From positions 17,276 to 81,275 of the forward strand of contig JAVCDE010000026.1 of assembly GCA_030765185.1 (NCBI GenBank): a stretch of DNA of 64,000 nucleotides, read 5' to 3'. Position numbers and translations under genes: made by a program. The number at the start of each line of letters is the position of its first letter. Within the stretch, counting starts at the first letter, position 1. Below are positions 12,001 to 24,900 of the stretch, in pieces. Source of the stretch: Candidatus Aceula meridiana (lineage in GTDB: Bacteria > Omnitrophota > Gorgyraeia > Zapsychrales > Aceulaceae). The notes under the pieces are model-generated. The model was given only the letters and a program-made list of their open reading frames with translations, was not told the origin of the DNA and made no database searches.

Positions 12001-15000
12001 AAGTTAGATTACATTCTTGATCAAGACGGAAATGTTATAGAAATTTCTGATGATATGCGCGCTTCTACTGCAGATCATCAAGTCGGATTTCAAAGAAAGC
12101 CAAGCCTGCATTTTATTCTTTATGATTATTACGATAGGTTGGGGTACTTAACGTATGCTGTAAAAAAAGATCCAGGGCTTTTAAAAATAAGAAAACAACT
12201 TGGGAATTTATCACAAGAACAATATTTTCTTCATATAATCAAAGAATTGGCTTATACAGAGGCTAAAAAAGTAGAACTAGGGGTCACAAAAGTTTCTTTT
12301 CATGAAAATGATATTACACTTTCTGGAATGGAAGTAGATTGGGATGAAGCTTCTTATGTAAAGGATATTGCTTTTGGTGATCCTTATTCACGTTTAACAA
12401 AAAATATGGAGGAAAAGAAATTTTATAGAAAATATGGATTTCTTTTGTTTGACTATAGAAGAAAATTAGAAATCTTGCAGAGATTTCAAATTTCATTAAC
12501 AGAACACGCTTTATTCAAAATTTCGAATATAAATGTGCAGCAAGAATTTTATCGTACGTTTTTAGATAGTTTAAGTTTAGATATGCGCCGCAGGGTTATC
12601 GCTGCGACTTCATCAAATATTAAAATAAAAACTGCTACAAGCGACGATATTCCATTCATTTTATCTCAATTCAGAAAAAGAATTAAGTCGTGGAGTCAAG
12701 TAAAGATGAATTATAAAAAGGATAATTCTAAGAATTTTTTCAGCTCACCATTAGCATTGAGTAATATACGAAGCGTTTTTTATTCGGTGAAAGAGATTTT
12801 TGGTGAAAAAATGCCCTGTAAAGAACAAAATCGACCAATGTTGCCTTTTGATTCAAAAAGTCTGCCTATTCTTTTTTCTGTTAGCCCCATTGTTTTAGTG
12901 CCGCTGATACTTGTTTCCGGTGTCAGCGTTGCTGTGATGGCAAAAAGTGCATTAAGTATTGCTATTATTTTTGGTATTCTTGGTTTTATTGTGTTACTTC
13001 GAGAATGGTTTGCTCAAATGAGGGCTGCACCAAATTCAAAAGAAATTTTATATGTTATGGTCTTAAATGAGCCGCTGATGCACAAATCGCCTTCCCGTGG
13101 CGGGGAGATTTCGTCAGCGGCTCATTTGTTTGCAAGGGCTTTTTCTGCAGCTTCTTCAGCCGTATCTGCTCCAAGAGCTTCTTCTACTGCTAAGCTGAAG
13201 AAAAAGAAAAACACTTTTGACTATCATTGCTTTTTTGATGTTTTAGGTATGCCAAAGTATTTTCAAGAAAATCCAGAGTCGTACAATATCATTAATTATA
13301 TGAATTACACCATTCAAGCGCTGCGTACGCCAGAGAATTTTAAAGGTAAAGTTGCTAGAATCCTTTCTTTATTGAATAGAACTTCAGAGGAATCTTTGGG
13401 TTATCTTGAGTCTGTGGCTAAGGATATTTATGCGCCTTTAGCTAATCGCGTTGGTTTTTTAGAAATTGCTGAACAGATCAAAGATTCTATTTTTAAAGCC
13501 CGTTTTCCAGATTTATGGCTTAAGTCTGAGCGTCAGATTCTTCAGGCTTTAGGAGGTATAAGCCGCGAGGAAGCAAACCGTTATCTTTTAGAAGTTAGTA
13601 ATAAGATTAAATCAAGGTTAAAGGAATTGGGTGTTGAGGTTGAAGCGGTTTATTTGAGAGTTAAAGGGGCGAGCTCTGGCTATGAAAAGGTTAAAAACAA
13701 AAGGGGCGACAAGACTTCGTATAATAAAATTGCAAGATTGCAAGATTTATTTGGTCTTCATATTATTTTAAAAAATAATGATGATTACTGGAAAGTTGCC
13801 GGACTTTTATTAGGCTGGGACAGTACTATGGCTCCATATCAAGATCTAGGAGGCGAGTTAGACGTGCAACAAACAGAAGAAAAAAGGCGCTTTAAAGGTG
13901 ATAAGTATGATGCGTATCATTTTGGCATTAAGATTCCTGTGTCTCCCAAGGCTAAAGAAAAAAGAAAATTTGTTATGATGGAGATAAAACTTTTTGATCC
14001 TGATAAGTATCTATATTTTCGATATAGTCAAGAAATTGCCGCATGGATTTATGAGCTAACCCGGCGTTATCCGAATCAAGAATTTCTTTCAGGTGGCCTA
14101 ACCCTAATGTCAAGTGATCCGGAGAAAAACTTTAAAAATCTTTATTTTTATTTTAAGAATTGGATTTATTTTTTCTTTGTTCAGGACAATAATCTTGACG
14201 ATTGCTGCATTTTAAAACCTGCAGGACTTAAAAAAGGCGTTATTATGGCAGATGTTTTGGGCTTGCTCGGAGTTGATGAGTTTTTGGCTCTTACGCAGAG
14301 TGAGCCTGTTTTACGGGAAGGTATGAATCAAAAGGATCATGCACTGCTTTCTGGTTTTAGTTTTGGACAAATGATTCGAAAAAATCAGGATCCAGATGTA
14401 AAGAAATTTAATAAGACCGTCATCCAAGAGCTTAGGGTGGGAGATTTTCTTCAGGTTGATCCTATGAGAAGGGCAGAATTTACTGATCAAGAAAAAAAGA
14501 AAATAAGTGAAAAAGCAAGACATTTAAGGACTCTCCTAAGACTCCAGCTTAAACCTGGAGATTTTTATAACATGTCTTTCCCGAGTAATGAGAGGCAGAA
14601 AAAAGCGACTCTTGGCATAATAAAGTTAACCAAGGCAGGCGAGGACAGAGTAGTGTACAAGTTTTTATTTAGAGATGAAATTGCGCAAGCCGTAGGTTTT
14701 AATGATGGGATTTATATGTGTGCTGTTTTTGGTCTTTGTGAAGTCTCTATAACGACTGAAGTTGCTAAGCAGGCGATTGAGGGAAAACCATGGCTTATGT
14801 CTAGGGTTGTAACCATTAAGGCAAAGGGTGGACAAGCTAAGAAGACTTTCGTGGAGCTGACGTTAAGCCTTGATTATGATTATTCTGAATTAATGAAAGC
14901 TGTTGTTAGCGTTGTTGCTCAAGTTGGAGCCGAGATTTTCGACAGTCAATATTTTGGAAAAAAAGTTAAGATGACGATATCGATTCTTGAAGAAAATATT

Positions 15001-18000
15001 CTAAAATTAAAAGATCTTTTAGGGAAAATTAAAGCATTGGATAAAGAAGCTAAGATTATGGATGAGAATTTTTTGAAAAAAGAAATACACATTCTTGCGA
15101 ATCTTAACAAGGACTATCAAAGTTTTTCTGTTACGCTTAATAGCATTTTATCTGTATTTGAAACTTTAAAGATTTATGTTTATGAAAATGTTAGTAGCTG
15201 GCAACCGAAAGATGAGAGATTAACGCCTAAAAAAGAAACTCCATTTCTTGTTCCGCTAAGAAGACTTCGCAAGCTAGACGACAAAGTTGTTTTGTATGAA
15301 TTTGTAATTGGAATACCGGCTACTTCAGAAGAGAAAATTTTGATAGAAAAACTTCAGCAAGTAACAAATGGCGGAGTTGTTGAAATTGTAGAGGCTTCGT
15401 CAGCGATTTCGTCTTTAGCGTTTTTTGACTTTATTCCGCAAGATGAGGATGCTGAGACGAAAAACGCGCGTCCAATAATCATTATGGAAGACGACGATAA
15501 AGAAACAACTAGGGTGATGTTGAACATATGGTTTTTTGATCGTGAGAATTTTGATGCCATGATGGAAACGTTTAAAGGAACAATGAAGGCTAAAAAGTCG
15601 GGGGTTATAAATATTAGCCTTGATCAAGAATTATCGAGACTTCATAAGATGCAGCGGAATATCCAGCGGCTGGAACGAATAAAAAAGACTATGGATCCGA
15701 ATGCGGGGAGCCTAGAATTTTTCGATAGTACTGTTGGTCTTGGACAAATTAGAATTAATAGGCTTAGAGGGGGAGCATCGTACGAAATAACAATCAGAAA
15801 AGACGATAAATTAGGGTATGTTTTAGTTTGCAAGGAGCAAGAGGGTGCTGAAGAAGTTATTATTGTAGGTCTGAAATCGACCTTGTCTCCGGGAATGACA
15901 ACCTTACCTCTTTTAGGGCGAGGCAAGACTTTTGGGGAGGCGGCTAAAAATGCGCATTCAGTCCTGACGGCAGACCAAGAGCTGGACAGAGAAATGTATG
16001 ATGTAATGATGCATATATGGTTTAAGGCTCGGAAAAGGTTTGGGCGTATGCTTAAGATCTTCAAGGTCAAGATCAGAACGAATGGCGCAGGGGAGATAAC
16101 CTTGAGTATTGGCGGGCATCGAATAGCCATCGGAAAATTAAAAAAGAACACTTTTTATACAGTAACTCTAAGGCGAGATGCTCATTTTGGATATATTTTG
16201 GTGTTGAGGACGAAAACGGGAGAGACGGCTATCGTAAAGTTAAATGTGTCATTGACGAAGAACACATATCTTTCTTCTTTGGGGCGGGGGAAAACTTTAG
16301 GGAAGGCTATGGAGAGGGTACAACAGAAATATCCAAAATCTGCGCACTCTCTTTCAAAGGGCAAGTTGAGAAAAGTCGAAATAAGGGATCTAGTCAAATT
16401 CGTTCAGGCTGGATTTGAGCCAGGGGAAGAATTGAGTTGCGCATACGAATATGAACGAGTATTGAGCTGTGGATTTCTGATGGATACCTATCGCGTAAAG
16501 GAGGGGAAGTTGGCTTCTCGTTTAAAAGAAACGATTGTTGCCGAAGCTCCTCCAGGCATACAAAAAGCACTTGATGCTTTTGAAGCTGTCTATGGGAAGG
16601 AAGTTTCTTCCGTACCGTTTACCCACGAAGGTCAAGATTATATTTTTATCAATTCTTTGTGTGACCTATCTTTTACCCAACTCTGTGAAGCCATTATTTA
16701 CGATACCTGCACTCTGGCAGGAATGTATCATTCGGGTGCTAGCCTGAAATCTCAAAATTTGATGTATGGGCATAAAAATGAAGATGAGAAAAACAGGGTT
16801 TATTTAAAGGCTATGTATAGTGTTTTGACTAACTATCAGGAAAAGGCTGATGTTATTGTTGATGATTTTTATGTGGAGGCAGAAACTGACAGTCTTGGGA
16901 TAATAGAGGTTTTTACACAGGGAACCACATTGCAGATTTGTGCCCCCAAAAGGGATACTGTCTATGAAATAACGCTTAGGGACGATAAACGATTAGGATA
17001 TGTCTTGATTTTGAAGGCGAAAGACGGTGCCCAAGAGTTTGTTATAGTCGGGATGAGACGCAATCTTAACAAAATATCAACAACCTTCCCGATCTTAGGA
17101 CAGGAGCCAACCCTTGAGGAGGCTCTTGAGAACGCAGATTTGACGATTATTGAGGAGCAAGAAGAGAGAGGTGAGATTCGGACAATGCTGAACACATGGT
17201 TCTTTTTTGATCGTGAGAAATTTGATGCCATGATGGAAACATTTAAAGGAACAATAAAGGCTAAAAGGTCGGGTTGTATTGATATTAATGTTGATCGAAA
17301 ATTATCGATGCTCAGTAAAGCGATGTGGAATGCTTGGAGGTTAAATGGAATAAGGGAAAAGATTGATTCAGCTGCCCAAAGAATAGAATTTTTGGATAGT
17401 ACTATTCGGCTGGGAAACATTAGAATTAATGGGCTCAAAGGGGGTGCCTCGTATGAAATAACTATTAGAAAAGACCGTCGATTAGGGTATGTTTTGGTTT
17501 TCACCGAACAAGATGAGGCCCCAGAAGTTATTGTCATTGGGATGAAAGAGGTAATAAGTACGAAAAAGACAACATTGCCTATTTTAGGACGAGGCAAGAG
17601 TTTTGATGATGCGATAGCAACCGCGCAGCCGGTATTAACGGCAGGCCAAGAGCTGGATTGGGAAATGTATGAAGTAATGCTAAATATATGGTTTAAGGCT
17701 CGGAAAAGGTTTGGGCGTATGCTTAAGATCTTCAAGGTCAAGATCAGAACGAATGGCGCAGGGGAGATAACCTCGAGTATTGGCGGTCATCAAATAGCCA
17801 TCGGAAAATTAGGAAAGAACACTTTCTATACAGTAACTTTAAGGCAAGATGCTCATCTTGGATATATTTTGGTATTGAAATCGGAAAGAGGAGAGACGGT
17901 AATCGCAAAATTAAACGAGTCATTGACGGAGAATACATCCTTATCTCTTGGGGGGAGGGGAAAAAGTTATTCAGAAGCCTTGGATAACGCCTTGGCGAAG

Positions 18001-21000
18001 GGGATTATTGAGGGGGTAGTAAAAACAATAATGAATGAAGGAAGAATAAAGCAACATTTAAAAGCTTATGGAGAGAAAGGAAGTCTTAGCCAAAAAGATT
18101 ATTTGGAATTAATTCAAGAGGTAAAGGGAATGAATTTTTCAGCTATTTTATTATTGAACAGTATCTTTTTAGGGAATCTTAGTGATGAAGTGCAAGAGCG
18201 GGTTATTATTCGAAAGTTATTTCGTTATCGAGCAGAAAAACATGGTCTTTTTGAGGCGTATATGAGAAATGCGATTGCCATTTCGGAATCTTTTTATAAA
18301 AAAACAATGCAAAGGTTTTCTGAGGATATTCCTGAAGATAGAAATAAATTTCTTATTGTGGAGGAGGATCTAGGCTCTTTCGTATTTGATTGGCTACAAA
18401 TTGCCAAGAGATTGCGCGGGATAAGTGAAGAAGAGAGAGCGTTATTGATCAAGTCAATCCAAAGCATAGACGCTGAATTTTTTGATGTTGAAGAATTTCT
18501 TAGCAATGGAGTTGATAAAAGAACTTTGATTCTCTTCGGAGAAGCTCTCCAGGAAGAGGGTTCGGAGGATTATCCTCTTGTCACATCTTCGGCAGTGACG
18601 GGCAGGAAAAACATTTCCTCCTCAGCCAAGAGTAAAGAGGAAAAAGCGTCGTCCACCGCAGAAGGTTTGCCTAACTTGACAAAAGGACAGTTTAGAAAGT
18701 TTGCTCAAAGATTTATAAGGTCGCAACCTTGGGATACGAGAAGTAAGTATAAAAGCTCTCTTTTTGAATACGGAGATTTATCAGATTTTGAAAATCTTGT
18801 GGAGACTGATTATCTTAAGCATCCTGCCGAGACTAATTTGAGTGGGAAGTATTTTTGCTTTGAAGATTATAAGATTTTTAGCCTTGGCCAGTCTCAGATA
18901 GGATTTCTAAGGAATGCTACAAATTTTTTAATTTTTATGCCTGAATTTACCGGATGTAAATGTTTATCGCTTCATTGCTTGGATAAGAAGCCTAGCATTT
19001 ATGCTACACATTTAGGCAGCACTTTTGATTGGAAGCGATTTTTTGAATATTTTGTTAATCTTTCAACTGATCAAAAGGAAAATATGAAGTGTTGGAGTTT
19101 ATTTTGGGAGCATCCTTTTTCTGAGAAGAGCATGGAATATCTTATTAGGATTAATAAAGAGTTGCCGCAACAGATTTTTGATATTAAAAAGAAATATAAG
19201 CACTCTTCATTATTTTTTTCTCGTCAATTTTCTTTTTTAATTCATTTTGATTATATCGCCATGTTGTCGAACAGAAGGGTTGAGAAAGTTCTTGCGCTTC
19301 CTTCGCAGCGGTCTTTTCGTCCTGATCTATTGCAAAATTTCTTCTCTTTGATTCAGCAACGGTATCCTCTTATCCCATCTCGGAGGGAAGTTGTTGATGG
19401 GATTAAGGGCATTGCGCCAACAGTCTTCCAAAAACAAGTCATCTCCTCAGCAGTAACCTCATCGGCGGTAGCGACAATGGTAGCAGACGTATCCGCGGCA
19501 ATAGCGCCTATTGCCTCGATGTGGGCGCCTATTATCGTTTTTAGCTCAATAGGTGGATTATTGCGATTTGCAATAGCTAAGCATATTGACAAGTATTTTA
19601 AAGGAATTTTTCCTTATGGCACGCTGGGCGTGAATTTATTAGGTTCCTTGATGATGGGATTTATAGTCGGAGGCGTTGAAGTTATTGGTGATATTCCTGC
19701 GTGGCTTATCGGCGGATTTCTAGGCGCTTTTACAACTTTCTCAACATTTATTTTTGATATTGAAACTTTAAGAAAAAGTGGAAAATATCGAAGTCTTGCG
19801 GGATACACTCTTTTAAGCATTTTAGGAGGTTATTTTGTATTTATTTTTGGGTATTTCGCAGGGTCTTTTGGTTTAAACACGAATATGAAAATCATTTTTG
19901 TTTCATTGATCATTATTCCTCTTTTTGCTTTTCTTGCCTTTAAAAATTCAGAAAATAAAATTCCATCTTTGCGAAAAATCCCTTCCTTTGTTTCCGGGCG
20001 AGAGACTCTTTATTTGTCGATAGGAGTTACGCTTGGGGTTGTTTCAAGGATGCTTTTTCCAGGCCAAACACTTTTTGTCAATATTCTCGGATCCTTTTTA
20101 ATTGGCGCGGCTGATTTTGGCTTAGGCGATGCATCGAAAAAAAGAAAACTTCTGCTTATTACTGGTTTTTGCGGAACACTGACAACCTTTTCAGGGTTTA
20201 TTTTAAAAACTCATGGTTATTTAGCCGCGATAACGCCTTTTGAGGCAGCCGCATATATATTGGCGAGTGTCGGTTTAGGGTATTTATTTTTAAAAATTGG
20301 GGAAAAATTTAGTGCTTTTCTGCTTGGAAATAAAAAAGATACAGGATACAAAGGGCAAAATAGGAAAAAAAAGGAGGAGGTTTCTTCGGCAACCCAACCC
20401 CATGGAGCCTTAGGCGAACATTCTTCAAAGCCTTGGCGAAGAATGGATAAAAATCTTACCGCAAAGGAAAGTTCTTCCTCGACACAGCCCAAAACGTCTA
20501 AAAATGTGGCAGAGACAAAAAAAGAATATAAATTCTTTTCCCGTTTTAAAAATGGCAAGGTTATTGAAATTGAAGATTATTATGGTGCTCCAGCCGAAGA
20601 GGCTCAGGCTATAGATTTAAGAAAAGCGGTTGAGGACGCAAACCTATCTTATGCTAATGCTGACGACCCGGACGATTTATCGACTGATGATTATTTTAAA
20701 GATATCAACTTGCAGGCAGCTGAAGACATTCAGTGGTTGATTTTTGGAGGGGCTTTTAACGGGTGTCTGAAAGATGTTATGGAAAGAATCTTGCATTGTG
20801 ATGAAGTTTTTTCTGATGAATCGACATTGCGGATCACATTGCCGCTTTTTGCTATTAAGAAGCTCTATAGCCTTCAAGTGAGCAAGTACACATATGATGT
20901 TCGTAATTATCTCAACCCTGAGAGGATTCCCGAAAGAATCGCCGAATACTCTAAAGAAGGATTAGGGGTTTTAACAACAGGCCAGGAGGATGTAATCAGC

Positions 21001-24000
21001 CCTGGCTATCATTATTTTATGTTACCATACAACTCTAATTATAAAATCATCATCCGAAAAGATGGAAAAGTTTTGCGAACCATCAAGGAAGATGGTGCTC
21101 CGATAGTGATTCTTGACTTCTTTACGTCTCTTGACTCCATGAGAACTCACGCCTTTAGGCCAGTTGCCTCTTCCTCGTCTGCCAGCAAAACTATTTTACC
21201 AGCTAACAAGGGCGGATTAGAGTTGCTACGCAAGATGATACTCGATGTTTTGAACGAAAAAGGTCAGGTCAGATTGGCAATCGATGGTGGAGTCGCAGTT
21301 GGTAAGAAGTTTTTGGTCGCAGCCATTCTAGAGGGAAAATTAGGCTTGACTCGTGATGAAATTTGTATTGCTCTCTTTAATAAGTATGCTTTCAAAAGAC
21401 TAAAGGATGGTAGAGATCTCTCTAGCAAGAAATTGTTAATATTCCCTGGACACTTCTCTAGCCGTTTGTCCGATGTTGATATTAAGGTCCATTTGGTTAC
21501 TGACGGTACCACGCAGCGGTCTGATATAGTACTTAGAGGTCAGGACCTTAGCGATTACCCAGAGCTTATGAATTTTCATTCATTAGTTTTAAATGAGCTA
21601 GAAAAGAAAGAATTTGACCTAACAATCGATAATAGCCAACGGTATCGGATGCCTTTTAAGCAGATGGTAGAGCTGTTTAGCGAGCCGCGCACAAATGGAG
21701 CCTTAGGCGAATATCCTTCGAAATCTTGCCGAAGAGCGGATAAAAATCTTATCACAAAGGGAAGTGCTTCCTCGGCACAGCCCAAAACGCCTAAAAATGT
21801 GGTGGTTACTAAGCGTGAAAAGGATGACTTGAGAGATATGAAGCTCTTTAAAAGATTTTATGACGGGGATGATGATGCCTTAGGCGAGTTCTTTGAAATT
21901 CGTAGACCTTATTTTATGGGATTTTTGATAAAATGCAAACCTGGGGCTATTTCCCGCGATGACGCTGAAGATATTTACCACGATGTTTTTATCAAGGTGT
22001 TTGATAGAGAACGTACACCTTTTAAGGGAGAAGACAAGCCGAGGATTTGGATAAGAACCATTTTACGAAATGCACTTTTTGATCGCATGAAACAAAAAAA
22101 GAGCAAGAGAACAGTTCCCCTTGACCTCAAAACGTTAGAGAATTTTCTCACCCTGTCAGGTGTATTTACACCGGAAGATTGGAAGAGTAGAGAAAAAATG
22201 CGTTTGTTGATACAGAGGAGGATTAGTCAACTACCAGCGACGTATAAAAATTATTTTCTTGCCCACCATTACGATGGTTTTAAGTATAGGGAAATTGCAA
22301 AGAAGGAAGGTGTTGCGGAAGGCACCGCTAAGAGTACTGTCCATAAGGCACTTTTTTACATGATAAAGGTGTTGGCGCCGGATATAAGAGAAGATCCGAA
22401 ATTGTTGGAGTATTGCCGGGAGCACTTGAAGGATTCTCTCAAAAAGGTTCTTGGAGCAGTTGTAGTTGCGGTTTTAAGTGGCGGACTATTGGCATATGGT
22501 ATGTGTAATAATGCCGGAATGACAGAAGGGGTTGTATGCGCTTTTATCCTGCCGTTTTTCACCTACGCAAGTTATTCTAAGTTGTTAAAGACAATACATG
22601 CGTTATTCGAGGATATAAAAAGGTGCATTTCTTCATTCTTTGTTTCCTTGACCAAGGCGGCAACTTTTATTTTACACATAAGTATTTCTGGCATACGTCT
22701 TGTGTCGGGGGGTTTAAACTTTGGCACGCATTTTGCGTCGGGGGTTTTAAGACCGCTAGCTCAAAAGTATATTTCTTTACGAAAAAAATTCCGATCAAAA
22801 GATAAGCAGGCTAATCAGAGCGGTTGGGGCACAATAGCTGCGAAGGCGTCTTATTTGAAGAAACCATATCAAAATAAATCGCTAGGGAAAAGGGATGATG
22901 CGCCTAACAGTTCTTACTGGAAGAATGGTAGGCGCTATGTAAAAGAAAGAGGTTCTTGGTTTTTTAGCTTTAGCCCGGTGTTATTTTTCTTCAAAGGAGA
23001 AATTTATGCTCTGCTACAGGCCTTAGAGATTCCTTGGCAAGAGATAGGGATGACGGGATTAGTTGTCTTAGGGGTAGTGGTGATAAAGTTTTTTGCTGCA
23101 GAGAAAGGTGTTCGCATTGACACAAAAGAAAACAATAAAAATAAAAATTCTTTAGATATCACGCCGTTATCCAAAAGAAGAAATTTTTTAAAGACTGCGA
23201 CAAATGTTTTTTCTATTTTATTAGTTATCGGACTAGTGTTTTTGATACCGCTTGATGCTGTCTATGCGCAGGGTGTAGCTGACCCTGTTGAGAAGACTTT
23301 TGACCAAGAAAAAGAAATCTTTTATAAAAATTTAAAGCAATCTGCCTTGCCTTTTATCCAGCCGTTTGTTGCAACACAAGAGGACGCCAATAGGTTTGCT
23401 AATGACTTTATCTATGAGGTAGCGGGATGGAAAAGAAGCGACGGGGAACCCATTCTTTACGTCTGGAGCCAGCGGCTTAAGAATGCGCGAAGAGGGGGTC
23501 ATAATAAAGAAGTGGCTCTAGATGAGGTGATCGCCCTTGAGCTTGAAGCCATAAAAGAAATCCGCACCATTATTCACAATCGTTTTTCTCTTCATGACAA
23601 CAGTCAGGATGCGTTTCTTATTCATGAGATTTTATCGACAAATCAGGCCTGTTCTTTAGGCAGGGCACAGATTCTTTTTATCGCGCTTAATGCATTGGAA
23701 ATTCAAACATTAGGGGTCACCATGGAGGATCTTGAGGCAAACTCCCAAGGAGAGCGTGGAACATCTATTGTTGTCTCAGCTCGTTTGGCAGATTCTCGCC
23801 AAGTTTTGATAAACGTTACACTTGATTCGCCGAATTTTTTAAGCGCTGCATGTGCTTTAAGTGAGATATTTATTGCCCATGATTGCGCTGTTGAATTTAA
23901 TCCTCAGTACGCCGGAAGTCAATTTTACAGAAATATTCATATTCTTGGTATGAGAGGGCTTATCTCCGCAGCTCATACAGATTTGGCCGTAAAATATAAT

Positions 24001-24531
24001 AGAAATTGTTCTTATGCGGCCGCACTTTATCATGCTAGAGAGGCTGTTGATTTGGACTGTTGTAATGAACGGGCTTCTTTGGTTTTGGGAAATATTTATT
24101 TTAACCAAGGAGAATATGATGAGGCGATTCGTTATTTTCGTAAAACTCTTTATATCCAAGATAGCAGGGAAGGCTATTTTAATTTGGGAGCAGCTTATCA
24201 AAAAACAGGTCGCCTTAAACTAGCTAAAACTTTTTTTGGCAAAGCGATACGTGAGGATCCACTTTTTTCATTGGCGTATGCTTACCGCGGCCATATTTTT
24301 TATCAACTTGGAAAATATAAAAAGGCACAAAAGTTTTATCGCCGAGCCCTTAAGATAGAGCCTCAAAGCGTTGATGCTGCTTATGGGCGGATACTATGCC
24401 TGATGAAATCTAATCAGATTGAGCAGGCAAGACAAGAATTCCTTAAAATGCTTGAGCTTCGCTCTCTTAAAGAGTCTGTAGATGAGGAGCAGATAATCAA
24501 GCTTGCTAAAGAGCTTGGTGTAGAGATTTAA
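1..24531 (+). CDS. giant multidomain membrane-associated protein; 5' end lies upstream of the window (>=8,176 codons in window)
   Basis: Frame 1 is open from nt 1. I translated nt 1-300 by hand and found no stop; the ORF track starts at a TTG at 292 only by convention. There is no TAA/TAG/TGA for ~24.5 kb of AT-rich DNA, which is essentially impossible without selection. The stop TAA is at 24529-24531. Multiple recognisable domains are listed as separate features below. Confidence 0.85.
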   Translation, partial: VEKQLTLLDQLEAIRRHISRTLGEEVALNQIFSQVVIPDLSAKARESLRNDPEGSRVEIKSKALAEKLRKALEKGEAQVSKYLEGAQPEVTAEHIQILESQGIEVLKVPEDKITGIDKRKPLYDNDYLATLLLNVGKITVKNTASSGSLIKKSTTLLTTKELKRIDRKYKEILAVYNEKGEFHGNKKRGEIYSEAGNFVKIADVIAFGSNGFVLQRRSKPQSPATLSVHGGHVELGDCPVEAAVREVEEEIGIAIDPSRLIQVGEGDLMFKMLENDAVENPHIDEQGRYISNSGVKGRIVNRFMAVYVLFMTREEIEKAKQYVASRKAKNLSDVDVRNEVSEIVEKNIEELIEDVAISPAEYATGIRYYLTWQRSLSLIQKIIKGTETARLIKKDINCDIARQAGEAEEASSNILCICNSNFNRSPAIELVFDYLIKTAGMIDKLLVDSGAVEQESKFGWGGVNETLADAFRAQFNVEPKRILSEPLSLEQIREAHIIVIATNKIRQKVQGRFAGELGKKKIFVMEELEQQMDIVEFRNSPNDDASILFKYCQIIDAMIWPLIIQSQQKPGVLSNEDLAIKVKRDRLLLYLKKTPLKEELAVSELSKRFDIHENVIRAMIRENFKYPESSDSYLDVLTEGGKSTDKVKLFTAIHRDGDWHLGIQVILITSEGEFVLFKRPSGKFGFIGGHVDVGEESKVAGIRETIEETSLTVVDQKRIIRVGRFKKEGILGIAGIKLNDFSEFPTVNISLKGTEKNVDLEDIYVYMLNRKEYRQLQKMADEQDALKVSEGELSGLTTESFEEISDGLQHRAERYSIGSQMVFKVASIKKGLKDIAGALVQKEIINKDRKSNEDFSSSINNLEKNSVGYTRLMQKFWSLFTNSIKDGISKEDLAFFKTRRNLETGKLINIYCASYSFWIDAKTEIGIKLSDFQKKMMKVLPADLQNKIVLFKNFHITIAVPLRDIDSPYSEETINFIANDLDGIASEVKSTEFDIVGLNAFPGGILFAQAYPVYDNNGEFELDKFEEAVNQRSPHALHYESNVFHITLGFLKDKLTPKQSAEFVDSLAKLRTSPIGKLRVTEMQLDYYNNLLIPEKILKKYSLSSSGIRENSKNFKPFEKITEDAVTIDVLYQRPGQNFQQVPQVKIPSYKDTKNGKLSSATEALGREGYSRDEEFLTQKSKNAESTEERSRQEPLSSSRGNSPVESAPNMPISTPVKINAPITPILLMPSVVSSAAFLLSRNAKNGKADMPIGILGNGLAEWFAENNNSAPNVIRNKNIDKNEPLSVAFSSRGGILSRFKKTAALLFIRAALLSIEKLAQKPLSVAFSSRGGILSSFKKTTAFLFIRATLLFIEKLAQKPLSRQLSSRGGNELEAAASSIVQKTIIVASIILSLIFLTPTATPAQAQTESYSIENVDYLTEADEQKLSVAISEIGYPQDFQEFYAAGFEQVLADIDAYELGRRWQESDIDGYKDIMKDFRKRMRKNDYFQRTYPLSNKPRNPFVQKWANALRLEEGHIFDVVKATELGRVDQTEQFKDYRLHRWQNHVLYFMLKVWGIDFDVVATEKYYVYLIERDRTKDTLAPELTHLYLDGYEGVLGAVNLEDEVYTLKGQQWISDITVSKKTFCENTAMLATPPLRGFFFTPYYFHYGQNESDFLKADMYFGYAFAYLNAEKYSKGIEYLTRGLRLNPFVKDRWIELARIYRYLAWLKTRGKYQTQESSESLYKKAAAAYNEAIELDPYDLTKVFELAEDVYLEIGEIEKAEECFAKAIMLDMRVKYRMERLVKKAEKDQKKKDQKVNNKASSNNETKLNLLQAFINSEDVSKFLPLKLRNIEQRSNSGIISSACESLSLAISKEKNKSSSNSILKTDVIINLNTSSWGDLPDRLTSSVAGGGRFTPAWRVSSSAASSAQNARKFNKELEIFWDIYQALIRAALKTNNHILTRQEIRGFINHYILVIDKDRDLASEFLKILDIMDFRPPQLWDAYPPACPKVEKRFYESLIIRNPAPFVEKGKLDFSAVLDLPEGRKISQDEYHFLSKLRGERNSLLVDPIFIVARIERQWALYNLQGMICKEVFKENQKTGTFKILRNSRFLNVFDTCYFKNQNSHLNFEALPNLFSSGQEVHQEIFLSMRKHHQKELSFTELLSNYFLKPFILSQIYLFRNIFDIPIKPKKKMEKALKEIKASSNAKNNKIFSPKDIIQAIKETEEVLREISRFKAVRISEPRAFGLLGAKLKSAGLQTALTLQILTTYREDIENSKRTPTQSFFKRIQSLKFRAQHELQWREGKIDDAFESLLSALALAVEVETQEVVDEMFQELLNKIIVEGKGQSEELMRRRTQIFYDAIIAGEDKDFNEKVLLRALTDLRKIIYTAAISQSQSAINRVIRFGLVLFIAQKEINLFEKSVVDSNNIEIQKDVAGAYENSARALIELDADIKDLQKAEQYIQKAVKLQPEEDAYKCYLNNVYLKQTIHYINEGELIKAEKAFEKAVADDLIDALERQDLETIGIDLYLGVIYLLQGKSIAEIDGTFAEAFEATDVSILLSYSERLESREKFLTYLSEAIQRDLSVEAKTAMAEFLKKTSYSIGGAIMAFRKKIKNLFAKGKYEEAKEHLTVYFSLVSQDAALKDLGIKIDKIITILARAKISEGSENVSKVLAEYEKVLAINPADENLVEKIAQIKKKEIERIAQIKEQEEKDQREAKKINTIGMHLRNAGNQIAAKKFDRAQKNLEKAREVIDSLEEPQESLSLLWKKISDDLTRNRKAPKTVEKEVVGETGKRKKPSLIVAPSNEETKTNKEETTHQKINVYAIGAVRTLLKGKEEQEQKRIWQAVYFERDLKPVEGASFSLYTVRFGSVRILIIPREVNKKRKSWIIAAVVNRAILNNTAKYGKIISNIGKRWDVYQKDARLIKPKKDWGSSSASIVQDKIIWIATYQQMASSLGSAQIKDQVQDIDFSSNFLNADCLLCQSLDKQGAVFFAVCDKRIIGYVILKETGFIPRIAVHEDFHRQHVGAQLFESCKKRALEQGIRSLFLDFYNLNNACGKRRKAFFESLGMSISSLSKKQYLFRAKYELKISSGARLINPKKAWVSSAAKARSLPLGRKSSSSIYLINLLGVSHDTLANTENFWNKIVTLLKEDGVAPEKISILNNLYEHIKGFYQADDIISHGYHCLLHSLEVAVDGYIAGKNKGYTKEERLELLVSGILHDLDPRNGVFRIPRVVNTVAFLESDKIIQGYIEDLELSFEKVIINILRTHYPWKEGAPLKFIQRLNKSIKGDEKRSRQKEIAETLALIDKVAVYARLNPLVAEYRVRQLAKETKCNADELVKNTLLFLEKEMKDFDAMLGNFLPSEFTKNFGKTKAHFEKRREELSSSTIRPSKSFSVPKANFKRVVKKAQTVSSTIKVKVDEQVSKRAETLHLEKTLHEAIKHIEDSTGTIIQLGWKHLNLGLSKKIIKMVSMRQLLYNQYNFLHFVLPDDSICLIEMVNVHADWWDHQWRKSLKCSIERALKPFIEDQKGKDQKGKERPVDILEEFVKQNLENMSLVNLKNSRRPFVVVNFPVDSIVSLKKLLAKDGVRFQDAEDDDQFDVCSKERPHCRVGIDRGKKTVIFSPSFFKGKSAPFDVWFTTNLINEFLEKKKAVEKKEKSFPGKGKASSTAFRAEKTESKDRINLEDVVLKDYLKNHSKTELKKVLQEINYEAYMDWELLITDWIEEEDAAVDYGEGSIVFARKNGKEVGYFLRRGNKFSFMAVRENERGNRIGPDMFIYALNKAKADGFSIVTFDVEYTNEEQLRSLDRLKKEKKISFQKQYFSRVFIYTARLVSSSAKSKKGKVSSIKACASSLILTEQDLRLSRQHGLGIRYVSPVGGEIVEENKRVVNILNREYPNYLDEKINFIVLTEQRAKKFSLDSKEIRVAFSGHPSHGRQLFYPLRNKIDDIYLYLGAKGCGDLVSKCLTHSISRYRNNGLAYLDDFQNAQVFTDILRMKGARVPLHVAACKLDYILDQDGNVIEISDDMRASTADHQVGFQRKPSLHFILYDYYDRLGYLTYAVKKDPGLLKIRKQLGNLSQEQYFLHIIKELAYTEAKKVELGVTKVSFHENDITLSGMEVDWDEASYVKDIAFGDPYSRLTKNMEEKKFYRKYGFLLFDYRRKLEILQRFQISLTEHALFKISNINVQQEFYRTFLDSLSLDMRRRVIAATSSNIKIKTATSDDIPFILSQFRKRIKSWSQVKMNYKKDNSKNFFSSPLALSNIRSVFYSVKEIFGEKMPCKEQNRPMLPFDSKSLPILFSVSPIVLVPLILVSGVSVAVMAKSALSIAIIFGILGFIVLLREWFAQMRAAPNSKEILYVMVLNEPLMHKSPSRGGEISSAAHLFARAFSAASSAVSAPRASSTAKLKKKKNTFDYHCFFDVLGMPKYFQENPESYNIINYMNYTIQALRTPENFKGKVARILSLLNRTSEESLGYLESVAKDIYAPLANRVGFLEIAEQIKDSIFKARFPDLWLKSERQILQALGGISREEANRYLLEVSNKIKSRLKELGVEVEAVYLRVKGASSGYEKVKNKRGDKTSYNKIARLQDLFGLHIILKNNDDYWKVAGLLLGWDSTMAPYQDLGGELDVQQTEEKRRFKGDKYDAYHFGIKIPVSPKAKEKRKFVMMEIKLFDPDKYLYFRYSQEIAAWIYELTRRYPNQEFLSGGLTLMSSDPEKNFKNLYFYFKNWIYFFFVQDNNLDDCCILKPAGLKKGVIMADVLGLLGVDEFLALTQSEPVLREGMNQKDHALLSGFSFGQMIRKNQDPDVKKFNKTVIQELRVGDFLQVDPMRRAEFTDQEKKKISEKARHLRTLLRLQLKPGDFYNMSFPSNERQKKATLGIIKLTKAGEDRVVYKFLFRDEIAQAVGFNDGIYMCAVFGLCEVSITTEVAKQAIEGKPWLMSRVVTIKAKGGQAKKTFVELTLSLDYDYSELMKAVVSVVAQVGAEIFDSQYFGKKVKMTISILEENILKLKDLLGKIKALDKEAKIMDENFLKKEIHILANLNKDYQSFSVTLNSILSVFETLKIYVYENVSSWQPKDERLTPKKETPFLVPLRRLRKLDDKVVLYEFVIGIPATSEEKILIEKLQQVTNGGVVEIVEASSAISSLAFFDFIPQDEDAETKNARPIIIMEDDDKETTRVMLNIWFFDRENFDAMMETFKGTMKAKKSGVINISLDQELSRLHKMQRNIQRLERIKKTMDPNAGSLEFFDSTVGLGQIRINRLRGGASYEITIRKDDKLGYVLVCKEQEGAEEVIIVGLKSTLSPGMTTLPLLGRGKTFGEAAKNAHSVLTADQELDREMYDVMMHIWFKARKRFGRMLKIFKVKIRTNGAGEITLSIGGHRIAIGKLKKNTFYTVTLRRDAHFGYILVLRTKTGETAIVKLNVSLTKNTYLSSLGRGKTLGKAMERVQQKYPKSAHSLSKGKLRKVEIRDLVKFVQAGFEPGEELSCAYEYERVLSCGFLMDTYRVKEGKLASRLKETIVAEAPPGIQKALDAFEAVYGKEVSSVPFTHEGQDYIFINSLCDLSFTQLCEAIIYDTCTLAGMYHSGASLKSQNLMYGHKNEDEKNRVYLKAMYSVLTNYQEKADVIVDDFYVEAETDSLGIIEVFTQGTTLQICAPKRDTVYEITLRDDKRLGYVLILKAKDGAQEFVIVGMRRNLNKISTTFPILGQEPTLEEALENADLTIIEEQEERGEIRTMLNTWFFFDREKFDAMMETFKGTIKAKRSGCIDINVDRKLSMLSKAMWNAWRLNGIREKIDSAAQRIEFLDSTIRLGNIRINGLKGGASYEITIRKDRRLGYVLVFTEQDEAPEVIVIGMKEVISTKKTTLPILGRGKSFDDAIATAQPVLTAGQELDWEMYEVMLNIWFKARKRFGRMLKIFKVKIRTNGAGEITSSIGGHQIAIGKLGKNTFYTVTLRQDAHLGYILVLKSERGETVIAKLNESLTENTSLSLGGRGKSYSEALDNALAKGIIEGVVKTIMNEGRIKQHLKAYGEKGSLSQKDYLELIQEVKGMNFSAILLLNSIFLGNLSDEVQERVIIRKLFRYRAEKHGLFEAYMRNAIAISESFYKKTMQRFSEDIPEDRNKFLIVEEDLGSFVFDWLQIAKRLRGISEEERALLIKSIQSIDAEFFDVEEFLSNGVDKRTLILFGEALQEEGSEDYPLVTSSAVTGRKNISSSAKSKEEKASSTAEGLPNLTKGQFRKFAQRFIRSQPWDTRSKYKSSLFEYGDLSDFENLVETDYLKHPAETNLSGKYFCFEDYKIFSLGQSQIGFLRNATNFLIFMPEFTGCKCLSLHCLDKKPSIYATHLGSTFDWKRFFEYFVNLSTDQKENMKCWSLFWEHPFSEKSMEYLIRINKELPQQIFDIKKKYKHSSLFFSRQFSFLIHFDYIAMLSNRRVEKVLALPSQRSFRPDLLQNFFSLIQQRYPLIPSRREVVDGIKGIAPTVFQKQVISSAVTSSAVATMVADVSAAIAPIASMWAPIIVFSSIGGLLRFAIAKHIDKYFKGIFPYGTLGVNLLGSLMMGFIVGGVEVIGDIPAWLIGGFLGAFTTFSTFIFDIETLRKSGKYRSLAGYTLLSILGGYFVFIFGYFAGSFGLNTNMKIIFVSLIIIPLFAFLAFKNSENKIPSLRKIPSFVSGRETLYLSIGVTLGVVSRMLFPGQTLFVNILGSFLIGAADFGLGDASKKRKLLLITGFCGTLTTFSGFILKTHGYLAAITPFEAAAYILASVGLGYLFLKIGEKFSAFLLGNKKDTGYKGQNRKKKEEVSSATQPHGALGEHSSKPWRRMDKNLTAKESSSSTQPKTSKNVAETKKEYKFFSRFKNGKVIEIEDYYGAPAEEAQAIDLRKAVEDANLSYANADDPDDLSTDDYFKDINLQAAEDIQWLIFGGAFNGCLKDVMERILHCDEVFSDESTLRITLPLFAIKKLYSLQVSKYTYDVRNYLNPERIPERIAEYSKEGLGVLTTGQEDVISPGYHYFMLPYNSNYKIIIRKDGKVLRTIKEDGAPIVILDFFTSLDSMRTHAFRPVASSSSASKTILPANKGGLELLRKMILDVLNEKGQVRLAIDGGVAVGKKFLVAAILEGKLGLTRDEICIALFNKYAFKRLKDGRDLSSKKLLIFPGHFSSRLSDVDIKVHLVTDGTTQRSDIVLRGQDLSDYPELMNFHSLVLNELEKKEFDLTIDNSQRYRMPFKQMVELFSEPRTNGALGEYPSKSCRRADKNLITKGSASSAQPKTPKNVVVTKREKDDLRDMKLFKRFYDGDDDALGEFFEIRRPYFMGFLIKCKPGAISRDDAEDIYHDVFIKVFDRERTPFKGEDKPRIWIRTILRNALFDRMKQKKSKRTVPLDLKTLENFLTLSGVFTPEDWKSREKMRLLIQRRISQLPATYKNYFLAHHYDGFKYREIAKKEGVAEGTAKSTVHKALFYMIKVLAPDIREDPKLLEYCREHLKDSLKKVLGAVVVAVLSGGLLAYGMCNNAGMTEGVVCAFILPFFTYASYSKLLKTIHALFEDIKRCISSFFVSLTKAATFILHISISGIRLVSGGLNFGTHFASGVLRPLAQKYISLRKKFRSKDKQANQSGWGTIAAKASYLKKPYQNKSLGKRDDAPNSSYWKNGRRYVKERGSWFFSFSPVLFFFKGEIYALLQALEIPWQEIGMTGLVVLGVVVIKFFAAEKGVRIDTKENNKNKNSLDITPLSKRRNFLKTATNVFSILLVIGLVFLIPLDAVYAQGVADPVEKTFDQEKEIFYKNLKQSALPFIQPFVATQEDANRFANDFIYEVAGWKRSDGEPILYVWSQRLKNARRGGHNKEVALDEVIALELEAIKEIRTIIHNRFSLHDNSQDAFLIHEILSTNQACSLGRAQILFIALNALEIQTLGVTMEDLEANSQGERGTSIVVSARLADSRQVLINVTLDSPNFLSAACALSEIFIAHDCAVEFNPQYAGSQFYRNIHILGMRGLISAAHTDLAVKYNRNCSYAAALYHAREAVDLDCCNERASLVLGNIYFNQGEYDEAIRYFRKTLYIQDSREGYFNLGAAYQKTGRLKLAKTFFGKAIREDPLFSLAYAYRGHIFYQLGKYKKAQKFYRRALKIEPQSVDAAYGRILCLMKSNQIEQARQEFLKMLELRSLKESVDEEQIIKLAKELGVEI
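590..975 (+). other. domain within giant ORF: Nudix hydrolase fold (Nudix box 1)
   Basis: GGHVELGDCPVEAAVREVEEEIGI at nt ~688-755 matches the Nudix box G-x5-E-x7-REUxEExGU (compare MutT GGKIEMGETPEQAVVRELQEEVGI), with D substituted for the first E. Domain boundaries are approximate. Confidence 0.65.
1234..1640 (+). other. domain within giant ORF: low-molecular-weight phosphotyrosine phosphatase / ArsC-like fold (C-X5-R P-loop)
   Basis: ILCICNSNFNRSPAIELVF...SGAV...EPLSLEQIREAHIIVIAT aligns with the LMW-PTP N-terminus (e.g. YwlE IIFVCTGNTCRSPMAEALF...SAGV...SPLTEELMESADLVLAMT). The C-N-S-N-F-N-R-S-P stretch matches the C-x5-R(S/T) P-loop with the conserved Asn. Confidence 0.5.
1970..2330 (+). 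other. domain within giant ORF: second Nudix hydrolase fold (Nudix box 2)
   Basis: GGHVDVGEESKVAGIRETIEETSL at nt ~2062-2130. The G-x5-E-x7-R-E-U-x-E-E motif is present; the terminal G is replaced by S. Confidence 0.55.
2780..3250 (+). other. domain within giant ORF: possible 2H phosphoesterase (LigT / cyclic nucleotide phosphodiesterase-like) fold
   Basis: Two H-x-T-x motifs, FHITIAVPL (nt ~2861) and FHITLGFL (nt ~3131), lie ~90 aa apart. This is the hallmark arrangement of the 2H phosphoesterase superfamily. The assignment rests on this motif pair only. Confidence 0.35.
3849..4125 (+). repeat. in-frame tandem repeat (~120-nt / 40-aa unit, 2.3 copies) inside giant ORF
   Basis: EPLSVAFSSRGGILSRFKKTAALLFIRAALLSIEKLAQK / PLSVAFSSRGGILSSFKKTTAFLFIRATLLFIEKLAQK / PLSRQLSSRGGNE. 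A 44-nt block (ccgttgtcagttgctttttcctcccgtggcgggatattaagcag) is identical in copies 1 and 2. The SRGG motif recurs at nt ~13089. Confidence 0.8.
4948..5330 (+). other. domain within giant ORF: TPR-like helical repeats
   Basis: AYLNAEKYSKGIEYLTRGLRLNP...AYNEAIELDP...AEECFAKAIMLD shows the TPR-like 34-aa periodicity (W/LG/Y...A...F...A...P). Confidence 0.45.
8830..9190 (+). other. domain within giant ORF: GNAT-like N-acetyltransferase fold (tentative)
   Basis: RIIGYVILKETGFIPRIAVHEDFHRQHVGAQLFESCKKRALEQGIRSLFLD...KRRKAFFESLG resembles GNAT motif A/B (V.E.R..G.G..L...A...G...L.L...N..A...YEK.GF). The match is imperfect. Confidence 0.4.
9480..9930 (+). other. domain within giant ORF: HD-domain phosphohydrolase-like
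   Basis: HGYHCLLHSLEVAV...(~25 aa)...GILHDLDPRNG gives the H...H...HD...D metal-binding pattern of the HD superfamily. Confidence 0.45.
11110..11375 (+). other. domain within giant ORF: second GNAT-like segment (weak)
   Basis: GYFLRRGNKFSFMAVRENERGNRIGPDMFIYALNKAKADGFSIVTFDV resembles the GNAT core (V.E..RG.GIG..L...A...G). The motif is degenerate. Confidence 0.3.
13222..14000 (+). other. domain within giant ORF: RelA/SpoT-homolog (p)ppGpp-synthetase-like nucleotidyltransferase domain
   Basis: YAPLANRVGFLEIAEQIKDSIFKARFPDLW aligns with RelA LAHRLGIHHIKTELEELGFEALYP. VYLRVKGASSGYEKVKNKRGDKTSYNKIARLQDLFGLHIIL aligns with GRPKHIYSIWRKMQKK...DVRAVRIV. DDYWKVAGLLLGW aligns with DCYAALGIVHTHY. 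YDAYHFGIKIP...FVMMEIKLFD aligns with YQSIHTVV...VEVQIRT. A possible ACT-like segment follows at ~14830-15060 (FVELTLSLDYDYSELMKAVVSVVAQVGAEIF...MTISILE). Confidence 0.6.
15506..18010 (+). repeat. in-frame tandem duplication (~1.67-kb unit, 2 copies) containing five copies of a ~95-aa module of unknown function
   Basis: RVMLNIWFFDRENFDAMMETFKGT (nt 15511) and RTMLNTWFFFDREKFDAMMETFKGT (nt 17176). An 84-nt block encoding WFKARKRFGRMLKIFKVKIRTNGAGEIT is 100% identical at 16018-16101 and 17689-17772. The module consensus is x-Y-E-I-T-[IL]-R-x-D-x-x-LGY[IV]L[IV]...LP[IL]LG[RQ]GK[ST]...EA...A, with copies at ~15770, 16140, 16950, 17440 and 17810. Confidence 0.8.
19519..20300 (+). other. domain within giant ORF: fused tandem pair of CrcB/Fluc fluoride-channel domains (integral membrane)
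   Basis: Copy 1 is SIGGLLRFAI...FPYGTLGVNLLGSLMMG...LIGGFLGAFTTFSTFIFD, compared with E. coli CrcB GGGTGSVARW...IPLGTLAANLIGAFIIG...ITTGFCGGLTTFSTFSAE. Copy 2 is FPGQTLFVNILGSFLIG...ITGFCGTLTTFSGF. Both carry the GTLxVN and TTFS(T/G)F signatures. Confidence 0.8.
21850..22390 (+). other. domain within giant ORF: ECF-type sigma-70 factor (regions 2 and 4)
   Basis: Region 2 is DDALGEFFEIRRPYFMGFLIKCKPG...AEDIYHDVFIKVFD...WIRTILRNALFDRMKQ, matching ECF AEDLVQETFLKAW...WLyrIarN. Region 4 is LPATYKNYFLAHHYDGFKYREIAKKEGVAEGTAKSTVHKALFYMIKVL, matching LP...R.VF.L...EGLSY.EIA..LG.S.GTVKSRL.RAR..L. A predicted TM helix follows at ~22440-22560. Confidence 0.75.
24005..24465 (+). other. domain within giant ORF: C-terminal TPR repeats
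   Basis: ASLVLGNIYFNQGEYDEAIRYFRKTL...GYFNLGAAYQKTGRLKLAKTFFGKAIREDP...LAYAYRGHIFYQLGKYKKAQKFYRRALKIEP are canonical 34-aa TPR units (LG..Y...G.Y.EA...F..AL...P). Confidence 0.7.
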
Positions 24532-24860
24532 AAGAGAGCGCACCAACCCTTAGTTAACCCTTTCGGCTTAAGATAACAAAAAAAACGCCAATAACTCGTG
24601 CCCACACCAGCAATGGCTAGTTTGGATTTCTAAGTTATGTCGCAGGTTTCATAGCTTAAACTTTCATTAAAAGGTAGCGCTTTCCCGAAAGCACCCTTAT
24701 CCCCTTACATTCCCCCTATATATGTTCTATACTTATTGTAGATTCTTTTAATTGTAGGATGGTTCTTTGACGATCAGAAAAAGGCAAACTACCCGTAAGG
24801 GTAGGGCGCAAAGTTATAGGGTCCTTTATAGGATAGCCAACTATCAGAAAAATATACACC

Positions 24861-24900
24861 AAACCTATTTCTTTTCGCTGAAATAGGTTTTTTTGTTTTT
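24861..24900 (+). terminator. rho-independent terminator-like hairpin followed by a T-run
   Basis: aaacctattt (24861-70) is perfectly complementary to aaataggttt (24881-90), with a 10-nt loop, followed by ttttgttttt. The stem is AT-rich. It sits 330 nt downstream of the giant-ORF stop and ~118 nt upstream of the next start. Confidence 0.4.

Follow-up and report, generated by a model that had tools for sequence, protein, structure and literature searches.

In a 64,000-nucleotide stretch of DNA from Candidatus Aceula meridiana, a bacterium of the phylum Omnitrophota described from Ace Lake, Antarctica (PMC8542988), we analyzed the 3′ end of a giant open reading frame (ORF) and found that it encodes a genuine, intact-looking extracytoplasmic function (ECF) sigma factor domain, which is covalently embedded near the C-terminus of the giant polypeptide. 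The domain is followed by hydrophobic segments and a tail of tetratricopeptide repeats (TPRs). The stretch, referred to below as the window, covers positions 17,276 to 81,275 of the forward strand of contig JAVCDE010000026.1 (GenBank assembly GCA_030765185.1) and comes from a metagenome-assembled genome (MAG); all coordinates count from the first base of the window. The reading that we favor, with a probability of roughly 45%, is that the last part of the giant protein is a tethered sigma hybrid that would work like IutY and the ECF52 proteins, with cleavage needed on both sides of the sigma domain.

A complete ECF sigma domain near the end of a giant ORF

The ORF is free of stop codons from base 1 of the window to a stop at 24529–24531 on the forward strand and comprises 8,176 sense codons (translation table 11). 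It is still open at the left edge, its N-terminus and true start lying outside the window; position 292, given as the start by the ORF lister, is merely the first start-like codon within it. The initial annotation of this DNA, made from the sequence alone, had spoken of an “8-kaa protein”, which is right about the giant ORF but short of its length, which is at least 8,176 codons and left-open.

1..24531, forward strand: giant mosaic ORF, left-open, with two NUDIX domains, a low-molecular-weight (LMW) phosphatase-like, a LigT-like, a TPR, a GNAT and a RelA/SpoT-like domain, two CrcB domains, the ECF sigma domain and TPRs
21844..22377, forward strand: complete ECF (group 4) sigma-70 domain, with sigma-2 at ~21952–22101 and the sigma-4 helix–turn–helix (HTH) at ~22204–22353

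At the end of this ORF, the annotation had recognized intact regions 2 and 4 of an ECF sigma factor, HTH included, and profile, structural and residue-level evidence all agree with it. Residues of the sigma module are numbered here from the methionine encoded at 21838, and Pfam was run on 21838–24531. The assignment had been made to hinge on the two sigma-70 profile hidden Markov models, both of which match above their cutoffs: Sigma70_r2 (PF04542) with 24.3 bits against 24 (residues 39–88, nt 21952–22101) and Sigma70_r4_2 (PF08281) with 43.9 bits against 25.7 (residues 123–172, nt 22204–22353). The NCBIfam model TIGR02937 (sigma70-ECF) covers residues 14–172 with 64.9 bits (cutoff 42.9), no narrower NCBIfam subfamily model exceeds its cutoff for the sigma domain, and the Pfam and NCBIfam scans of the module contain no match to sigma-3 (r3) or sigma-1.1 (r1). 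Hallmark residues of ECF sigma factors are kept, namely DAEDxxH(Q)DxF, an invariant W, RN, and LP..Y...F......G....EIA.....GT.KS in the HTH of region 4.2. By these sequence criteria, the domain belongs to the ECF (group 4) superfamily, with sigma-2 and sigma-4 as its only parts and a short linker between them.

When 1.84 billion representative proteins were searched exhaustively with phmmer, 11,829 matches at E ≤ 1e-3 were obtained (best 1.8e-14; 24–38% identity), and no close relative of the sigma domain was found among these representatives. The best matches are nearly all stand-alone sigma factors of ~190 aa, with which query residues ~3–180 align end to end, indicating a complete ECF sigma rather than a fragment. 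In the Protein Data Bank (PDB), phmmer matched AlgU, SigW, SigL and RpoE. The AlphaFold2 (AF2) model, built with 76 homologues, has a predicted local distance difference test score (pLDDT) that exceeds 90 for the greater part of sigma-2 and sigma-4, and the top Foldseek matches in the PDB, at probability 1.0, are sigmaE/RseA, AlgU/MucA and SigW/RsiW. The embedded domain may have sigma activity, which would comprise binding of the RNA polymerase (RNAP) core and promoter-specific initiation. The search for a cognate promoter that had been proposed initially gave no enrichment, the generic ECF-type motif GAAC-N15–18-CGT being observed 9 times against 11.7 expected.

The sigma domain continues into a predicted membrane segment and a TPR tail

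The order of membrane helices and TPR tail given by the initial annotation was recovered. Downstream of the sigma domain, hydropathy analysis distinguishes three strong hydrophobic segments (22447–22503, 23044–23100 and 23206–23262; Kyte–Doolittle (KD) hydropathy 2.1–2.65) and three weaker ones (22531–22587, 22624–22680 and 22960–23016; KD 1.4–1.5), with loops rich in lysine and arginine (K/R) between them, and the TPRs follow at ~24079–24465. From the last linker to the stop the module has a calculated length of about 900 aa, in line with the ~100-kDa C-terminal product that had been predicted.

22447..22503, forward strand: first strong transmembrane (TM) helix (VLGAVVVAVLSGGLLAYGM), ~20 residues past sigma-4
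22531..23016, forward strand: three weaker hydrophobic segments and a K/R-rich loop, with no detectable domain
23044..23100, forward strand: second strong TM helix, by hydropathy
23176..23193, forward strand: RRNFLK, a consensus twin-arginine translocation (Tat) motif, occurring once in the 8,176 codons (expected 0.013)
23206..23268, forward strand: TM or signal-anchor helix, the most hydrophobic of the module (KD 2.65), ending in VYA|QG, a signal-peptidase-like site
23269..24078, forward strand: predicted extracytoplasmic domain of ~270 residues, fold unassigned, with no homologues or Pfam match and a low-confidence AF2 model
24079..24465, forward strand: about four C-terminal TPRs (Pfam TPR_1, 84.7 bits)

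In the AF2 model, the last helix of sigma-4 runs on continuously into the first TM helix. Two strong and three weak hydrophobic segments lie ahead of RRNFLK, and the final helix (23206–23262) is preceded by SKRRNFLK, the exact RRxFLK twin-arginine consensus, and trailed by the acidic DAVYAQGVADPVEK. This signal-like stretch (23176–23268) sits mid-polypeptide, with no start codon nearby, and RRNFLK, helix and VYA|QG together have the look of a fossil signal peptide, derived from what was once a separate gene for a secreted protein and now forming the last TM helix. Tat dependence of this helix appears doubtful, since it lacks the low hydrophobicity and the trailing positive charges that characterize proteins inserted by both Sec and Tat (PMC5449189).

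The TM segments, the positively charged loops, RRNFLK and VYA|QG fit an N-in/C-out topology, in which the sigma domain would be cytoplasmic and the orphan domain and the ~4 TPRs would lie outside the membrane; the K/R-rich loop within 22531–23016 is probably cytoplasmic. Placing the sigma domain inside and the TPRs outside requires an odd number of membrane-spanning helices (3 or 5). Single-sequence AF2 modeling was confident for the TPR part only, and the external non-TPR domain reached a pLDDT of about 30–60; a guess that this domain is transglutaminase-like or SirB1-like found no support and was dropped.

The unit had also been called “anti-sigma-like”, a description that we could not sustain. 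Sigma-4 and the first TM helix are only ~20 residues apart, Pfam gave no anti-sigma or other domain within 22390–24090 even at E ≤ 5, no zf-HC2, RskA or FecR-type domain was detected anywhere in that region, and no homologues of it were found.

A disordered linker with a recurrent serine motif precedes the sigma domain

20402..20509, forward strand: copy A of the linker repeat, lying behind the CrcB pair and ahead of an unrelated module; paralogue of the linker ahead of the sigma domain
21658..21837, forward strand: linker B, adjoining the sigma domain upstream, with repeat copy B at 21695–21802 and an ASSA motif at 21766–21777; disordered in AF2

Linker B has a pLDDT below 60 in the AF2 model and shares its repeat with a linker further upstream. 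Copies A and B show 87% DNA identity over 108 nt, and 11 of their 14 differences fall on codon positions 1 or 2, which indicates that the linker peptide is under little amino-acid constraint. An RNA element in the repeated linker was considered and rejected: fold z-scores against shuffles are −0.68 and −1.40, and the folds of the two copies differ. The giant ORF contains two such linker pairs with 87–88% DNA identity and unrelated flanking modules (11474–11513/18614–18653 and 20402–20509/21695–21802), a pattern which suggests that linkers were copied, or served as recombination points, during module shuffling.

Linker B also carries a short serine motif that recurs along the giant protein. The pattern [AVILGKT]-S-S-(S)-[A/T/N], here termed the SS motif, occurs 28 times in the giant ORF, about every 290 aa, against 3.6 ± 1.9 in shuffles and 3 times in the remaining proteins of the window (11,442 aa); for the narrower SS[SAT]A the counts are 11 and 0. 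Examples lie at 1228–1239, 8761–8775, 11473–11487, 18613–18627 and 21766–21777. An unbiased tripeptide scan points to the same feature, with SSA (18 against 3.1 expected), ASS (16 against 3.1) and SSS (15 against 3.2) the most over-represented among tripeptides occurring more than a few times, and serine codons within the motif runs are 84% TCN, compared with 63% for isolated serines. The motifs fall between recognizable domains, for example as ASS|N directly ahead of the phosphatase-like domain, and flank the GNAT and CrcB domains on both sides; this association with domain boundaries is weak, being a by-eye reading of a protein of which Pfam covers a small part. We regard the SS motif as a candidate linker or processing signature of the giant protein. 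Its last occurrence is the one ahead of the sigma domain, 19 residues before the methionine at 21838, and since none follows, the sigma–TM–TPR stretch forms one terminal unit of about 915 residues.

The nature of this junction bears on the question of whether the fusion is real. A mis-assembly of the MAG, or a base error, could have erased a stop that separated the giant gene from an ordinary sigma gene behind it, and both the metagenomic origin of the sequence and the absence of the giant protein from a protein collection that contains its neighbors would fit such an artefact. The junction does not resemble an intergenic region, however, but is an in-frame paralogue of an internal linker of the giant gene and has the same motif. 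In addition, the GC content is uniform, the frame stays open throughout 24.5 kb, and the repeats near the junction are just 87% identical over 108 nt and are an unlikely cause of a chimeric join. Given that this junction is typical of the internal linkers of the giant gene, a lost stop or a chimeric assembly is very unlikely to account for the fusion.

An internal start has little to distinguish it

21838..21840, forward strand: in-frame ATG, the proposed internal start, with AAGGA 13 nt upstream; compatible with a start, not distinctive

The sigma–TM–TPR unit might be made separately, from an internal start at ATG 21838 (or TTG 21829) on either the full-length mRNA or an internal transcript. 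Such translation would yield a membrane-tethered sigma hybrid of 897 aa that exists apart from the giant chain. The ATG does lie where the similarity to sigma factors begins on the N-terminal side, with query residue 3 aligning with residues ~7–18 of stand-alone ECFs, and the linker RNA upstream has no strong structure. The purine-rich stretch that had been noted ahead of it is present, containing AAGGA 13 nt upstream, and its pairing with the anti-Shine–Dalgarno sequence (−6.0 kcal/mol) ranks 14th of 136 in-frame ATGs (top ~10%), which makes it not distinctive. Moreover, the Shine–Dalgarno spacing of 13 nt is long, and pairing of this kind is uninformative in this genome, where means are −2.6 kcal/mol for true starts and −2.7 kcal/mol for internal ATGs. 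No sigma-70-like promoter was found on the forward strand between 19962 and 23476. In the AF2 model, the first sigma helix begins 9 residues ahead of Met 21838; methionine is not enriched behind the linker motifs of the giant ORF (p=0.34), and some modules begin without any methionine, such as the phosphatase-like domain with ASS|NILCICNSN. A 15-billion-protein collection contains no recorded protein starting at 21838, 21829, 21799 or 21802, an observation of low weight since that collection holds the neighbors but not the giant protein. The initial proposal of initiation at ATG 21838 thus gains no specific support, and we consider separate production unlikely.

A proposed tethered sigma factor and its possible release

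In the mechanism that we favor, the last ~915 residues of the giant protein would form one self-contained signaling module. The ECF sigma domain would lie on the cytoplasmic side, joined ~20 residues past sigma-4 to a multi-pass membrane segment, the last helix of which, apparently a former Tat or Sec (general secretion) signal peptide, would place the orphan domain and about four TPRs outside. Held at the membrane, the tethered sigma would probably be inactive, and regulated proteolysis of the membrane segment would set in when the external TPR domain senses a signal. Since unrelated modules totaling at least 7,280 residues are attached to the N-terminus of the sigma domain, a second cut would also be needed for release, in the disordered upstream linker, where the [A/V/I]-S-S-(S)-[A/T/N] motif found between modules offers a candidate processing site. 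We infer proteolytic release and signal sensing by the module; for release, the argument is one of analogy (IutY, ECF48/52/53 and BldN), together with the disordered, motif-bearing linker. The initial annotation had held that the sigma factor cannot reach RNAP unless released, which is plausible by analogy with IutY (PMC8999054) but overstated, as tethered action is possible.

Several points weigh against this mechanism. Neither an anti-sigma domain nor a protease domain or site-2 protease was identified within the window. The Sigma70_r2 match is marginal, the SS motif was defined post hoc from the sequence and may merely mark flexible linkers, and the source is a MAG, so that an assembly error is possible. 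Furthermore, no homologue of the whole module was found among proteins, GTDB genomes or metagenome contigs: the 897-aa tail gave TPR matches only in the protein search, the GTDB genome search returned two unrelated ECFs only, and the metagenome contig search gave no match. Synteny via the downstream U32 peptidase gene led to five related metagenome loci, in none of which (0/5) a giant gene lies upstream.

Some of the same observations would also fit a sigma domain that is never released, either acting while tethered by holding RNAP and promoters at the membrane, as ToxR and CadC do, or being carried along as a non-functional passenger of module shuffling. The giant proteins of Omnitrophota accumulate very diverse and poorly conserved domains, the module, being without homologues, may be evolutionarily young, and the DNA repeats in the linkers as well as the segmental duplications point to active shuffling; in addition, neither a protease nor an anti-sigma partner is seen in the window. 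A decaying passenger would not be expected to retain the hallmark ECF residues and both domains intact in a confidently predicted fold, although a recent fusion would look alike. For tethered action, the position of the sigma domain between membrane-embedded parts, with CrcB upstream and TM helices ~20 residues downstream, would probably be sterically awkward in the holoenzyme. Overall, we judge permanent tethering somewhat unlikely, in either form.

A wider version of processing would treat the giant ORF as a true bacterial polyprotein. Here, the SS motifs in the disordered linkers would be processing sites, at which the enzymes, the CrcB channel and the last ~915-aa sigma unit would be freed, and release of the sigma factor would report completion and switch on a dedicated regulon. 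Such a function as reporter would follow from the position of the sigma domain at the extreme 3′ end of the giant ORF, as its release would signal that the whole giant protein had been made and inserted. We view this as decidedly improbable; if true, it would provide the first cleavage-site logic for the giant proteins of Omnitrophota and a new form of ECF sigma control.

A sigma factor must join RNAP on DNA for its known role, so that a sigma domain with membrane-embedded parts of a giant chain on either side of it offers a natural, built-in reporter of whether the chain is processed. The arrangement suggests that at least the sigma–TM–TPR part needs either proteolytic liberation or separate synthesis in order to function, and the recurrent SS[S/A/T]A linker motif supplies concrete candidate cleavage sites in the giant protein. 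N-terminal extensions of ECFs are described as generally short, and an extension of >7,000 residues combined with a membrane tether would be an extreme addition to the non-canonical ECF architectures. The finding concerns one MAG-derived instance.

Comparison with known systems

ECF sigma factors with TPR extensions exist, as had been stated initially, and so do membrane-tethered ECF hybrids (PMC7826278, PMC8999054). The closest counterparts of the module are IutY of Pseudomonas putida (ECF243), which is activated and freed by Prc/RseP proteolysis (PMC8999054), and ECF48/52/53 proteins such as SCO4117, which contain fused TM extensions and for which a release like that of IutY is predicted (PMC8999054, PMC7826278, PMC5826349). 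As in these proteins, the ECF sigma is followed by TM helices and a predicted extracytoplasmic domain, and proteolytic release of the tethered factor would be expected. In contrast to them, the module contains no FecR-like or zinc-finger anti-sigma domain and has a gap of only ~20 residues between sigma-4 and the membrane, 3–6 hydrophobic segments instead of 1–2, an external part made up of an orphan fold and TPRs and, uniquely, unrelated modules of at least 7,280 residues in total N-terminal to the sigma domain. Lacking an anti-sigma domain, the module is not a member of ECF243, ECF52, ECF48 or ECF53.

Members of ECF42 also unite an ECF core and TPRs within one polypeptide, but their C-terminal TPR extension is cytoplasmic and contacts the sigma core (PMC8999054, PMC7826278), whereas here ~570 residues, with 3–6 hydrophobic segments and a signal-like sequence, part the sigma domain from the TPRs. 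Since the TPRs are predicted to lie outside the cytoplasm, the module would not belong to ECF42. An N-terminal extension that has to be removed is known from BldN (ECF121), a pro-sigma factor with a proteolytically removed pro-sequence (PMC7826278). The extension of BldN is short and dedicated, while that of the sigma domain studied here amounts to thousands of residues and includes enzymes and channels.

The internal Tat-like motif has parallels in polytopic proteins with dual Sec/Tat targeting, such as the actinobacterial Rieske proteins and Sco3746 (PMC3471235, PMC5449189), which likewise have a twin-arginine consensus directly ahead of the last TM helix and a folded extracytoplasmic C-terminal domain behind it, a counterpart of which is predicted here. 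Unlike in those proteins, the last helix here exceeds all others of the module in hydrophobicity, and the residues behind it are acidic, not basic, so that the features of a Sec-to-Tat hand-over are absent, and no cofactor-binding domain was recognized. Proteins of this class also have an even number of Sec-dependent helices ahead of the motif, where the module has two strong and three weak hydrophobic segments.

Many Omnitrophota lineages contain ORFs of >20 kb, and peptides from a giant ORF have been detected in V. archaeovorus, showing that giant ORFs of this phylum are translated (PMC10066038). Archaeovorin and multi-enzyme classes of such proteins combine NUDIX, GNAT, HD, methyltransferase, TPR and other domains on membrane-anchored chains (bioRxiv 10.1101/2023.11.21.568195; 10.64898/2026.06.07.730766). 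Cleavage of Omnitrophota giants into several products has already been hypothesized (bioRxiv 10.1101/2023.11.21.568195), and whether they are cleaved is an explicit open question in this literature, with no cleavage sites known (bioRxiv 10.1101/2023.11.21.568195; 10.64898/2026.06.07.730766). The ORF analyzed here resembles these giants in phylum, great length, tiling by unrelated Pfam domains, multiple TM segments and poor conservation, and would differ from them in its ECF sigma: sigma-factor domains are unmentioned in the searchable text of those papers, the main texts of which contain “sigma” only as a supplier name, and equally in that of a survey of huge proteins (PMC11573180). In keeping with the initial annotation, we found no description of an ECF at the end of a giant protein in the searchable literature, nor one of a complete ECF sigma that has both a membrane/TPR tail behind it and a fused stretch of 7,280 residues or more ahead of it.

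Other features of the giant ORF and the window

With 24.5 kb (8,176 codons), the visible ORF is longer than the 20 kb used to define giant ORFs in Omnitrophota (PMC10066038); another threshold in the surveys is ≥10 kaa, which ~5,800 Omnitrophota proteins reach. Ten proteins encoded near the giant ORF are identical to entries of a Candidatus Aceula meridiana MAG (MDP82664xx). Phylum, length, TM segments recognized by hydropathy and the unrelated Pfam domains tiling the chain identify it, on sequence grounds, as a member of the mosaic giants of this phylum. The Pfam domains make up a small share of its length; the LMW-phosphatase (LMWPc), LigT and RelA/SpoT matches are weak, and at the C-terminal end Sigma70_r2 and Sigma70_r4_2 are followed by further TPRs. 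No C39, S8 or SecA-like domain was found within the visible 8,176 codons, a further difference from the Omnitrophota giants described before. The giant protein is absent from both the 15-billion-protein collection and a 5.8-billion-cluster protein database, in which the proteins of its neighbors are present. The other 40 kb of the window contain ordinary genes, for housekeeping functions and for type II secretion/type IV pili, that end in normal stops, which shows that the standard genetic code is in use and that the giant ORF is an exception. The idea that stops are missing because of sense-to-stop recoding was accordingly dropped; the neighbors end at standard stops, and the motif serines are encoded by a mixture of TCN and AGY codons.

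The CrcB (fluoride channel) domains form a tandem pair at ~19530–20330 (Pfam, 114.9 bits in two stretches) with SS-motif linkers on both flanks and, judged from the sequence, are built into the giant chain as a covalent dimer; a fluoride riboswitch was not detected anywhere in the window. The ORF also contains a segmental duplication of 1.67 kb, which relates 15532–16193 to 17203–17864 with 75–87% DNA identity, and the region of ~15.2–18.0 kb contains several repeated modules without an assigned function, with motifs such as RGGASYEITIRKD..LGYVLV. A tandem 114-nt repeat at 3851–4078, 92% identical, encodes KPLSVAFSSRGGILS.FKKT.A.LFIRA.LL.IEKLAQ and is followed by a signal-peptide-like segment at ~4141–4209 ending in AQA|QT and by a TPR-terminated module, a second internal look-alike of a secreted TPR protein. 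Paralogy of the two signal-peptide-plus-TPR modules (4138–5430 and 23170–24528) was rejected, as they are similar at the TPR level only.

The 486-nt gap past the giant gene contains a cyclic di-GMP (c-di-GMP-I) riboswitch (Rfam RF01051; 24773–24848, forward strand; 60.8 bits against a gathering score of 35), with a promoter-like site ahead of it (24704–24733) and a terminator-like hairpin with a T-run behind it (24861–24890). It lies upstream of a gene for a hypothetical protein of 1,381 aa (25018–29163, MDP8266493.1), for which Pfam and NCBIfam gave no match. Further downstream, a type II secretion/type IV pilus cluster (48848–61017) encodes a GspE/PilB-like ATPase with an MshE-type c-di-GMP-binding N-terminus, GspF, pseudopilins, GspK, a PilM-like protein and a secretin, and is preceded by genes for biotin synthesis and tRNA modification.

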